Shown here: piece after piece, positions 5,409 to 8,165 of the stretch | Layout: every line of letters starts with the position of its first letter | Numbering within the stretch: position 1 is the first letter of the stretch | Assembly (NCBI GenBank): GCA_036399015.1 | Contig: DASWNW010000012.1 | Location: 2,996-66,995, forward strand | From: Thermoanaerobaculia bacterium | Lineage (GTDB): Bacteria > Acidobacteriota > Thermoanaerobaculia > Gp7-AA8 | DNA: 64,000 bases | Direction: 5' to 3' | Program-made: the position numbers and the translations under genes | Notes under the pieces: model-generated | The model's input: only the letters and a program-made list of their open reading frames with translations | What the model was told of the DNA's origin: nothing | Databases searched by the model: none

Positions 5409-8165
5409 ATGAGCAACGACACGTCGCCTCTCCGTGACGACGTTCACCTCCTCGGCGACCTCCTCGGCCAGACGCTGCGCGCGCAGGAGGGGGACGAGCT
5501 GTTCGAGATGGTCGAGCGGGTGCGGGCGCTGGCGAAGAGCGGCCGCGGAGGCAACGGCGAGGACTTCGACCGCCTCGCGGAGCTGCTGGCCGCACGTCCG
5601 ACCGCGGAGGCGCTGCCGGTCGCGCGCGCGTTCGCCCACTTCCTCAGCCTCGCCAACGTCGCCGAGCAGCATCACCGCGTCCGCCGCCGCCGCGACTACC
5701 TCCGCGACCCGAACGCGCAGCCGCAGCCCGGCTCGTTCGACGAGGTGCTGGCGCGCCTGCGCGAGCAGGGCATCAGCGAGGAAACGCTCTTCGAGCGCGC
5801 CGCCTCGCTGCAGATCGAGCTGGTGCTCACGGCCCATCCGACCGAGGTGGTGCGGCGGACGCTGCTCCAGAAATACACGCGCATCGCCGAGCTGCTGGCG
5901 CGCCGCGACCGCGGCGACCTCACCATCCCCGAGCAGCGCGAGGTCGTTGAAGAGCTGCGCCGCGAGATCACCTCCGCCTGGGAGACCGACGAGGTGCGCC
6001 ACACCCGCCCCACTCCGCTCGACGAGGTGAAGGGCGGCCTCTTCATCTTCGAGCAGACGCTCTGGGACGCGCTCCCGCGCTACCTCCGCACGCTCGACGG
6101 CGCGTTGCGCACGCACACCGGCCGCCCGCTGCCGCTGGAGGCGGCGCCGATCCGCTTCGGCTCCTGGATCGGCGGAGACCGCGACGGCAACCCGAACGTC
6201 ACGGCCGAGGTCACCGCCGACGCCTGCCTCCTCGCGCGCTGGGTGGCCGCCGACCTCTATCACCGCGAGGTCGACGCGCTCCGCTCGGAGCTGTCGATGA
6301 AGTCGGCTTCCGACGAGCTCGTTCCTCGGAGTTCCTCGGGTTCCTCGGGTTCCTCGGGTTCCTCGGGTTCCTCGGGTTCCTCGGGTTCCTCGGCCACCAC
6401 CCAGACTCCCGCCGCCGAGGAACCCCGAGGAACCCCGAGGACCCGAGGAACCGAGAGGAACCGAGGAACCGTCCCCCTCGAAGAACCCTACCGTGCCGTC
6501 CTGCGCGAAGTCCGCGACCGCCTGCTCGCCACGCGTGTCTCCATCGAAGAGGCGCTGGCGCGGCGCGGCGAGCCGATCGTCCTGGAGCGGGAGGACCTGC
6601 TCGAGCCGCTGCTTCGCTGCCACCGCTCGCTGCACGCCACCGGGAACGGCATCATCGCCGACGGACGCCTGCTCGACATCATCCGTCGCGTGCAGGCGTT
6701 CGGGCTGACGCTGGTGCGCCTCGACGTGCGTCAGGACTCGGCGCGGCACACGGCGCTCCTCGACGCGATCACCCGGCAGCTCGGCCTCGGCAGCTTCGCC
6801 GAGTGGAACGAAGAGCAGCGGCAGGAGTTCCTTCTTCGCGAGCTCGCCTCGCGCAGGCCGCTCCTCCCGCGCGACCTCGAGCTCGACGACGACGCGCGCG
6901 CCGATCTCGACACCTTCCGCGCCATCGCCCGCATCCCCCGAACCTCCCTCGGCGCGTACGTCATCACCATGGCGGGCAACCCCTCCGACGTGCTGGCCGT
7001 GGCGCTGCTGCAGAAGGAGGTCGGCGTCGCCGAGCCGCTGCGCGTCGTGCCGCTCTTCGAGACCATCGCCGACCTCCGCCGCGCCGGCGAGACGATCGCG
7101 AAGCTGCTCGACCTCGAGTGGTATCGCGACTTCATCGGCGGACGGCAGGAAGTGATGGTCGGCTACTCCGACTCCTCCAAAGACTCCGGCCGCTTCACCG
7201 CCGCCTGGGAGCTGTTCCAGGCGCAGGAGCAGGTCGTCTCCGCCTGCGTGAAGGCGGGCGTCGAGTTGACGCTCTTCCATGGGCGCGGAGGCAGCGTCGG
7301 CCGAGGAGGGGGTCCGACGTACCTGGCCATCGGGTCGCAGCCGCCCGGCTCCGTCGACGGACGCCTGCGCGTGACCGTGCAGGGGGAGATGATCCAGGCG
7401 GAGTTCGGCATGGTCGGCATCGCGCTGCGGACGCTGGAGGTCTACACGACCGCCACGCTCGACGCTACGCTCGCGCCCTCACCGGCGCCGCGCGAGGAGT
7501 GGCGCGCGGCGATGCAGAAGATGTCGGACGCCTCCGCGCGCGGCTACCGCTCGGTCGTCTACGAGACGCCGCGCTTCGTCGACTACTTCCGCGCCGCCAC
7601 GCCGGAGGTGGAGCTGGGGGAGATCAACATCGGCAGCCGTCCCGCGCGCCGCGGCGCGAAGAAAGGGGTGGAGTCGCTGCGCGCGATTCCGTGGCAGTTC
7701 GCCTGGACGCAGAACCGCCTCCTCCTGCCGTCGTGGCTCGGCGTCGACCACGCACTCGACTCCGGTGACCCGGCCACGGTCGCGGCGATGATGCGGGAGT
7801 GGCCCTTCTTCCGCTCGACGATCGAGCTGATCGAGATGGTGCTGGCGAAGGCGGAGGCGCGCATCGCCGCCTACTACGACCGCCTGCTCGTCCCCGACGA
7901 CCTCGGCGACCTCGGCGAAGAATTGCGCGCCCGCCTCCTGCACACCGTCGACCTGGTGCGCCGCGTGACCGGCCACGAGCGCCTGCTGGAGACCAACCAC
8001 GCCCTCCGCCGCTCGATCGACGTCCGCAACCCCTACGTCGACCCGATCAACGTCGTACAGGCCGACATCCTCCGCCGCCTGCGCAAATCGCCCGACGACG
8101 CCCTCCGCGACGCGTTCATCGTGACCGTGAACGGCATCGCGGCGGGGATGCGCAACACCGGTTGA
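5409..8165 (+). CDS. ppc: Phosphoenolpyruvate carboxylase
   Basis: 918 aa; motifs VMVGYSDSSKDSG, FHGRGGSVGRGGGP, C-terminal GMRNTG; contains a 50-aa in-frame insertion encoded by a nonamer palindrome (6321-6470). Confidence 0.95.
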   Translation: MSNDTSPLRDDVHLLGDLLGQTLRAQEGDELFEMVERVRALAKSGRGGNGEDFDRLAELLAARPTAEALPVARAFAHFLSLANVAEQHHRVRRRRDYLRDPNAQPQPGSFDEVLARLREQGISEETLFERAASLQIELVLTAHPTEVVRRTLLQKYTRIAELLARRDRGDLTIPEQREVVEELRREITSAWETDEVRHTRPTPLDEVKGGLFIFEQTLWDALPRYLRTLDGALRTHTGRPLPLEAAPIRFGSWIGGDRDGNPNVTAEVTADACLLARWVAADLYHREVDALRSELSMKSASDELVPRSSSGSSGSSGSSGSSGSSGSSATTQTPAAEEPRGTPRTRGTERNRGTVPLEEPYRAVLREVRDRLLATRVSIEEALARRGEPIVLEREDLLEPLLRCHRSLHATGNGIIADGRLLDIIRRVQAFGLTLVRLDVRQDSARHTALLDAITRQLGLGSFAEWNEEQRQEFLLRELASRRPLLPRDLELDDDARADLDTFRAIARIPRTSLGAYVITMAGNPSDVLAVALLQKEVGVAEPLRVVPLFETIADLRRAGETIAKLLDLEWYRDFIGGRQEVMVGYSDSSKDSGRFTAAWELFQAQEQVVSACVKAGVELTLFHGRGGSVGRGGGPTYLAIGSQPPGSVDGRLRVTVQGEMIQAEFGMVGIALRTLEVYTTATLDATLAPSPAPREEWRAAMQKMSDASARGYRSVVYETPRFVDYFRAATPEVELGEINIGSRPARRGAKKGVESLRAIPWQFAWTQNRLLLPSWLGVDHALDSGDPATVAAMMREWPFFRSTIELIEMVLAKAEARIAAYYDRLLVPDDLGDLGEELRARLLHTVDLVRRVTGHERLLETNHALRRSIDVRNPYVDPINVVQADILRRLRKSPDDALRDAFIVTVNGIAAGMRNTG
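6321..6470. repeat. Nonamer minisatellite palindrome (GTTCCTCGG)x7 ... (CCGAGGAAC)n, family D, inserted in frame inside ppc
   Basis: Perfect 9-bp tandem units then their reverse complement; translated in ppc as SSGSSGSSGSSGSSGSS...EEPRGTPRTRGTERNRGT. Confidence 0.9.

Follow-up and report, generated by a model that had tools for sequence, protein, structure and literature searches.

In a Thermoanaerobaculia bacterium (Acidobacteriota) the gene for phosphoenolpyruvate carboxylase (PEPC), ppc, carries a hairpin composed of tandem copies of the nonamer GTTCCTCGG, a loop, and copies of the reverse-complementary nonamer CCGAGGAAC. The stretch of DNA analysed here, hereafter the window, comprises 64,000 nt of contig DASWNW010000012.1 (assembly GCA_036399015.1), and the hairpin lies at positions 6321-6470. 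A first-pass annotation of the window had already reported this repeat, and its presence within ppc was confirmed, as 150 nt or 50 codons inside an intact open reading frame (ORF) of 918 aa; beyond what had been recognized there, the hairpin belongs to a genome-wide repeat family, and this changes what the hairpin is. It is probably an ectopic, in-frame passenger copy of a lineage-specific dispersed repeat, expanded by slippage in a disordered loop of the enzyme that is tolerant of additional length.

An element with the structure 5'-(GTTCCTCGG)n - variable loop - (CCGAGGAAC)n-3' populates one Thermoanaerobaculia clade, usually just downstream of stop codons, and a copy of this selfish or 3'-end repeat element has probably been inserted in ppc as a passenger. 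To survive inside a gene, such a copy would have to create no stop codon, to possess a total length that is a multiple of 3 (150 nt in ppc) and to fall in a surface loop that tolerates changes in length. The 5' arm of the ppc copy would then have grown by replication slippage in 9-nt (3-codon) steps, the sole steps that the frame allows. The strong depletion of the family from genes, the survival within genes of copies that are multiples of 3 and lie in tolerant loops, and the lack of a conserved sequence in the encoded peptide together suggest that the insert plays no part in PEPC function and is carried as a passenger, either neutral or of mild cost.

The repeat hairpin within the ppc reading frame

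The ppc product shows the features of a complete enzyme. Residues 8-918 match positions 1-919 of the Pfam profile PF00311 (PEPcase; 1070 bits, E = 0), E. coli PEPC (1fiy) aligns with residues 3-306 and 358-918 (E = 1e-249), and all the columns that are invariant among 52 PEPCs are kept. The ORF proceeds through the repeat without a stop, and the ENA gene call on the source contig, k141_169246 (77,938 nt), gives the same 918 residues (Table 1).

The 5' arm contains eight perfect GTTCCTCGG units, one more than had been counted in the first-pass annotation: a first copy at 6321-6329, a single A, and seven contiguous copies at 6331-6393. The reverse-complementary variants described behind it are indeed present, as a degenerate arm at 6415-6470 in which four units are perfect CCGAGGAAC (at 6415, 6425, 6443 and 6461). 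The flanking peptides, ..SELSMKSASDELVP and LEEPYRAVLREVRDR, had been quoted correctly, and the tail that follows the hairpin in the DNA is CGTCCCCCTCGAAG.

RNA folding of the segment 6311-6480 gave -118.3 kcal/mol, compared with -76.7 +/- 4.3 kcal/mol for shuffled sequences (z = -9.6; 0/200 shuffles match). The ungapped complementarity of the two arms is 79-86% over 29-47 nt, so that the hairpin, initially described as near-perfect, is good but falls short of that.

Table 1. Features of the ppc insert, related arrays in the window and inserts at the same PEPC loop in other lineages
Feature	Position in window	Strand	Description
ppc (phosphoenolpyruvate carboxylase) coding sequence (CDS)	5409..8165	+	918 aa, intact; host of insertion
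Nonamer-repeat palindrome, entire insert	6321..6470	+	150 nt = 50 codons; encodes VPRSSSGSSGSSGSSGSSGSSATTQTPAAEEPRGTPRTRGTERNRGT
5' arm	6321..6393	+	GTTCCTCGG, A, 7 x GTTCCTCGG; in-frame reading VPR, then (SSG)n
Loop CCACCACCCAGACTCCCGCCG	6394..6414	+	21 nt, peculiar to ppc locus
3' arm	6415..6470	+	~6 degenerate CCGAGGAAC units, periods 8-10 nt; reads EEP/RGT/PRT/ERN
5'-arm units only (4 units)	29487..29523	+	in frame, central loop of AmpG-like MFS transporter, CDS 28935-30167
3'-arm units only (5 units)	30682..30726	+	in frame in rsmE, CDS 30192-30890
Typical intergenic member	53545..53645	.	4+4 units, 25-nt loop; 17 nt downstream of stop of minus-strand gene 53663-55225
ppc insert of L001 (P0001)			4+4 units, 11-nt loop; fold z = -9.1
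ppc insert of L002 (P0007)			~2+4 units; fold z = -6.7
ppc insert of L003 and L004 (P0003)			~2+4 units; fold z = -4.4; identical in ENA and Logan assemblies

The run of seven spacer-less perfect 9-nt units is the longest of 111 arrays, the next reaching four. Slippage under a reading-frame constraint would produce such uniform runs, and from them we infer a slippage history for the 5' arm of ppc; the variation in 3-aa steps that had been predicted from the sequence is, on the same grounds, plausible. A phase-variable contingency repeat was also considered and rejected: with a unit of 9 nt and uniform 9-nt periods in the left arm, slippage alters the length of the protein and not its frame. 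An intrinsic (Rho-independent) terminator was likewise rejected, as the T-run is missing behind the hairpin, and no terminator-like site was found at 6321-6480. No Rfam family matched at the gathering score anywhere in the 64-kb window.

A mis-assembly of the metagenome, or a dead ppc gene, is a very improbable explanation of these data. The window comes from a short-read metagenome assembly (a k141 contig), assemblers can misjudge the copy number of a perfect tandem array, and the exact 918-aa PEPC is absent from a collection of 15 billion proteins in which the neighbouring AmpG is present (P0241, 100% identical, from an NCBI TPA Thermoanaerobaculia metagenome-assembled genome, MAG); one possible reason for this absence is that an annotation pipeline dropped or altered the repeat-bearing gene. 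However, the ORF is intact and full length with all its invariant PEPC columns, and neither arm (73 and 56 nt) reaches the length of the assembler k-mer. Moreover, assemblies from four other samples have orthologous hairpins at this codon position, the same kind of hairpin is found at this loop in three other lineages, and the one of P0003 is identical in two assemblies. The artefact or pseudogene that the first-pass annotation had named as its possible refutation is therefore unsupported, since an independent ENA gene call also gives the intact product.

The dispersed nonamer family and its location

The nonamer GTTCCTCGG occurs 27 times in the window, compared with 1.2 expected, and 0/100 shuffles reach this number. 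A scan of one genome per GTDB species, using two adjacent units (an 18-mer) as the query, returned at least 113 loci, all the genomes involved being metagenome assemblies. Clustered arrays were found in at least 11 Thermoanaerobaculia/Acidobacteriota MAGs, while the matches in other taxa were nearly all isolated single ones; this statement and the figures on 56 paired arrays that follow refer to the matches listed.

The family has a constant architecture. In 56 paired arrays the GTTCCTCGG-arm is followed by the loop and the CCGAGGAAC-arm, and only one array is reversed; since the element is its own reverse complement, this fixed order is a real property and not a consequence of strand choice. 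Both arm orders would fold equally well, despite the 56:1 bias. Four units per arm are the commonest number (left arm 29/56, right arm 31/56) and the median loop is 20.5 nt long, the loop sequences being unrelated between loci. On the left, the units are joined directly, by A, by G or through a 1-nt overlap, and the right arm mirrors this with no spacer, T, C or an overlap; in intergenic copies, unlike in the 5' arm of ppc, periods of 8, 9 and 10 nt are mixed. No recurrent direct duplication was seen by eye in the 12-nt flanks of the 56 copies, and their centres are unrelated. A canonical G-quadruplex motif (four G3+ tracts, loops of 1-7 nt) is contained in 6/56 hairpins, the ppc copy included, and was rejected as a family-defining trait because of this low number.

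Some arrays depart from the common form. At L007, L026 and L066, a T-run upstream together with an A-run downstream of the copy lengthens the stem. Units without a complementary arm were observed in a Proteobacteria MAG (JA6.bin37; L054, 2701-2808), with 12 GTTCCTCGG-like units in a single orientation, and in a Rickettsiales MAG (L021, 4932-5201), with several single-orientation blocks of such units. Neither a description of the nonamer family nor a link between Thermoanaerobaculia and repeats or hairpins was found in the literature searched.

Nonamer hairpins are usually located between genes. In the related loci, where genes were called crudely by a codon-usage gene caller trained on the window, 45/50 hairpins away from contig ends are outside called genes and 5/50 inside, with genes accounting for 78% of the DNA. 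Where genes are in tandem or convergent, the distance from the stop codon of the upstream gene to the start of the hairpin is 3-20 nt. A typical intergenic member of the window, at 53545..53645, has an RNA fold of -71.5 kcal/mol (z = -6.3). More generally, window gaps at gene 3' ends fold with about -0.5 kcal/mol per nt, compared with -0.2 to -0.3 for divergent gaps, and they are filled by tandem-repeat hairpins, mostly made of heptamers. Judging from their position, the intergenic copies probably act as, or are tolerated as, 3'-end RNA hairpins. The proportion of arrays located in genes was 26/116 for the nonamer and 2/13 for the heptamers (Fisher p = 0.73, with few heptamer arrays outside this genome).

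The existence of this family bears on the origin of the ppc array. It is quite unlikely that the array originated in situ, by slippage and fold-back copying of native ppc sequence, its likeness to other loci being due to convergence of the same mutational process on the same unit. Such a local origin would be consistent with the locus-specific loops and with the native right junction, GTC GAG GAG CCG, which matches the unit at 8/9 positions; in addition, the final unit of the L001 insert overlaps the native EEP codons and the first unit of the L003 insert the native GS(D)E codons. However, a match of 8/9 arises in 7.8% of random 60-nt coding segments, and for this reason microhomology of the native CGAGGAGCC with the unit was also rejected as a signal for targeting. 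More than 50 unrelated loci, in at least 11 genomes, have the identical 9-mer with the same order of arms and the same set of spacers. If single arrays folded back at random, both arm orders should be seen, and the observed ratio of 56 to 1 argues against this. Furthermore, in terms of codon bias, the unit's GTT and CCT codons look atypical for a genome with 68% G+C, the native orthologue site having GTG CCG.

The insertion loop of PEPC and other in-frame copies

The site of insertion was defined using the 120 closest PEPC homologues, which all come from Thermoanaerobaculia/Acidobacteriota metagenomes. Most of them read ..SELSMKSGSDEL-PA-V-EEPYRAVL.. at this position, with 3 residues (PA-V) versus 51 in the window, which corresponds to a 48-aa insertion. 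In the alignment with the PEPC structure 1fiy, the 51 unaligned residues stand in place of E. coli residues 302-308; both the insertion and its position between conserved PEPC blocks, which had been proposed from the sequence, are thus borne out. In the insert-free ppc of P0002 (L005) the site reads GAC GAG CTG CCC GCG GTC GAG GAG CCG TAT, with 9 nt versus the 153 nt of the window; without an insert, the native site shows no such folding (z = +1.3).

The length of this loop is naturally variable: most relatives have 0-3 residues and a few have about 20-30, while E. coli PEPC has 7 and Arabidopsis PPC1 about 22. In an AlphaFold2 (AF2) model of the ppc product, built with 52 sequences (predicted template modelling score, pTM, 0.85), the remainder of the protein is folded confidently, while the predicted local distance difference test (pLDDT) is below 50 for exactly residues 307-355, which have no secondary structure and are preceded by a helix at 266-294 and followed by one at 360-385. 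Low confidence is otherwise confined to short loops (256-263, 626-635 and 743-771). The model agrees with the flexible loop suggested by the first-pass annotation, and predicts that the insert adds about 48 disordered residues in a surface loop of naturally variable length.

Related inserts with the same DNA architecture are present in P0001, P0003 and P0007, which are among the seven closest PEPCs (Table 1), and the loops and junction details differ among those of L001, L002 and L003/L004. In a neighbour-joining tree of 24 PEPCs (200 bootstraps) these sequences form a star-like clade with supports of 4-52%, and with such low values the tree does not decide between a single and a repeated gain of the insert. 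When proteins are clustered at 90%, P0001, P0003 and P0007 each stand alone in their cluster. Within-species copy-number variants were sought in metagenome contigs: the exact left ppc junction matched nothing, and a degenerate pattern of the junction matched at least 120 loci, none of them ppc among the matches listed. P0029 has a different insert (RDGWRLAVGGWRENMGG..) at the same loop, seen at the protein level only; its peptide GWRLAVGGWR resembles what a TGGCGGT-type heptamer array would encode, which would independently mark the PEPC loop as tolerant of repeat DNA.

Arrays in frame are not confined to ppc. At the ampG site of the window, where only 5'-arm units are present, P0242 and P0245 have the full hairpin, the native L120 sequence has none, and the array is lacking in orthologues. 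In rsmE the array overwrites a variable loop, the product measuring 232 aa versus 230 aa in orthologues, and the P0123 rsmE has a full hairpin at the same place, which adds 45 aa. In other genomes, an array splits the Pfam match of a BtpA-family gene, and two more ORFs, neither of which matches Pfam, also contain arrays in frame. The six frames of the unit, VPR/FLG/SSG and PRN/RGT/EEP, explain all the inserted peptides; all of them are open because every T in both arms and in the common spacers precedes T or C. Moreover, a 9-nt unit keeps the frame when the copy number changes, and a 7-nt unit does not.

The persistence of the insert in several lineages raises the question of a co-opted function. 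The insert could be kept as a disordered linker, Ser/Gly-rich and then charged, involved in regulation, phosphorylation or partner binding; alternatively, the hairpin, or a (GGGTTCCTC)7 G-quadruplex, could attenuate or stabilize the transcript at the mRNA or DNA level. Either role seems unlikely, although an intact ORF and a strongly folding hairpin are found together at this loop in four lineages, the 5' arm of the window is among only 6/56 members with a canonical G3N6 x4 quadruplex motif, and the linker at this position is longer in plant PEPCs as well. Indeed, the insert is missing from most close relatives, including P0002, which is 89% identical outside the insert, and its length, loop and peptide are wholly different among the four carriers. 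The peptide corresponds to the repeat unit translated in a chance frame, with the same DNA being present in ampG, rsmE and btpA; finally, no terminator T-run follows the hairpin, and AF2 assigns no structure to the insert.

Several points nonetheless weigh against a passenger copy of a dispersed element. The loops of the element differ at every locus, and no target-site duplication was evident when the flanks were inspected. The microhomology at the ppc junction is not significant, and the ampG and rsmE sites match the unit at only 7/9 positions. The four ppc carriers are not monophyletic in the PEPC tree, where P0001 pairs with the insert-free P0002 (bootstraps 4-52%), and the strong hairpin kept in four ppc lineages could also reflect use. 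The role of the intergenic copies as terminators or stabilizers is deduced from their position only. Finally, 3/4 nonamer loci in the window are inside genes versus about 10% elsewhere, which may be small-number noise.

A broader proposal, possible but doubtful, is that the nonamer hairpins represent an actively propagating, sequence-specific element, moved by an enzyme or by template switching, which, owing to a 9-nt unit open in all six frames, would repeatedly write new disordered loops into conserved housekeeping proteins (ppc, rsmE, ampG, btpA). The signature of such active propagation would be the fixed 5'-GTTCCTCGG order, the preference for 4+4 units and the co-evolution of the arms. 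The locus-specific loops and the lack of an apparent target duplication in the flanks inspected would argue against a classical miniature inverted-repeat transposable element (MITE).

Known repeat families and neighbouring heptamer arrays

From the functional point of view, the closest parallel is with the Rickettsia palindromic elements (RPE), dispersed palindromes that are found between genes and also in frame in housekeeping genes, where they encode a fold-compatible peptide (Ogata et al. 2000 and 2002, summarized in PMC10969869). The nonamer element is similarly a dispersed palindrome of ~100-150 bp, intergenic or in frame in unrelated ORFs, and over 50 such hairpins are spread over at least 11 genomes. 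RPEs have a conserved full-length consensus and a conserved peptide and are not known to be built of tandem short units. In the family described here, by contrast, only the 9-nt unit is shared, the copy number is variable, the loops are unrelated and each frame yields another peptide; the family lives in free-living Acidobacteriota and not in Rickettsia, and about 10% of the copies are in genes, which is below the frequency reported for some RPE families. Membership thus fails on consensus and peptide.

As regards architecture and position, the closest parallel is with the heptamer arrays of Xanthomonas (GGGAATC; GGGGAYT in Nostoc), which lie very near the stop of the upstream ORF, prefer 4 units and are 89-93% intergenic, the remainder being in coding regions, with 70-75 convergent inverted pairs per genome able to form stem-loops (PMC4692102). 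The nonamer family also has a modal 4+4 form, starts 3-20 nt after stop codons and has ~10% of its copies in genes. However, its unit is of 9 nt and of another sequence, is nearly always paired in a hairpin with one fixed arm order, and the quadruplex motif that defines the Xanthomonas class is found in only 6/56 copies; unit length and quadruplex motif therefore exclude membership.

Other known families are more distant. Repetitive extragenic palindromic sequences (REP) and the bacterial interspersed mosaic elements (BIME, REPIN) that they compose are short extragenic palindromes of enterobacteria and pseudomonads, located at gene 3' ends, often in inverted pairs, and regarded as protecting upstream mRNA or as selfish DNA; REPs are single imperfect palindromes, essentially extragenic, and linked to RAYT (IS200/IS605-like) transposases. 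The nonamer hairpins resemble them in being mostly outside called genes (45/50) and in their position after stops, but each of their arms consists of a tandem unit in several copies. A MITE is characterized by target-site duplications and by a conserved core between defined terminal inverted repeats, whereas the nonamer copies have no conserved core and no duplication was evident in the flanks inspected. The bacterial MITEs (Correia, ERIC, BOX) are small non-autonomous inverted repeats with occasional in-frame ORF fusions (PMC10969869). In Calothrix PCC 7601, genome-wide tandem heptanucleotide repeats are described as tandem arrays and not as obligate hairpins (cited in PMC4692102), and their insertion in coding sequences is not described in the available part of that text; the window is similarly rich in GTTGCCG, GTTGCTG and GGTGTCG heptamer arrays.

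The in-frame invasion of housekeeping genes by palindromic repeats has until now been largely treated as peculiar to Rickettsia. An element of different construction behaves likewise in an uncultured soil lineage, in at least ppc, ampG, rsmE and btpA plus two further ORFs, and offers a natural experiment on which protein loops tolerate ~50 extra disordered residues. The alleles of 8+6, 4+4 and 2+4 units at one codon position make repeat dynamics measurable under a frame constraint. In practice, protein lengths are inflated by the arrays, which can also lead annotation pipelines and alignments astray and probably form hotspots of assembly breaks in these MAGs. The fixed arm order and the 4+4 preference, shared with the unrelated Xanthomonas heptamers, suggest that short-unit hairpins at gene 3' ends have a mechanism or a function in common.

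Almost every 3'-end gap of the window contains a hairpin with tandem-heptamer arms, whose polarity agrees with that of the nonamer family: a 5' arm of the GTTGCCG, GTTGCTG, GTTGTCG or GGTGTCG type is followed by its complement as the 3' arm. These hairpins occupy the gaps 1733-1863, 12137-12221, 13481-13590, 21496-21702, 24878-24962, 26219-27056, 28399-28476, 46400-46481, 55561-55680, 59023-59113 and 61082-61196. A second conserved hairpin, with the core GTTGCCCGGGCC...GCCCGGGYAAC and flanks of CGTTGCG-type heptamers, was identified at 13500-13590, 21565-21650, 26680-27056 and 46400-46481; at 26689-27035 it is present as a 136-nt unit repeated 2.6 times. At 2631-2660, ACCAGCA is repeated 4.3 times in frame in an AcrB-family RND efflux CDS (1869-5144), where it is read as ..SNQQPATSN.., and looks like an array of the heptamer family. 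A 21-nt unit, AACGGTTCGACCGTATTGACG, repeated 4.6 times with a 90% match at 40646-40741, is unrelated to the hairpin families. Downstream of ppc, the gene calls of the source contig include a DUF433 gene at 8333-8587, and two adjacent Ku-domain genes (PF02735) are located on the minus strand at 10198-11896.

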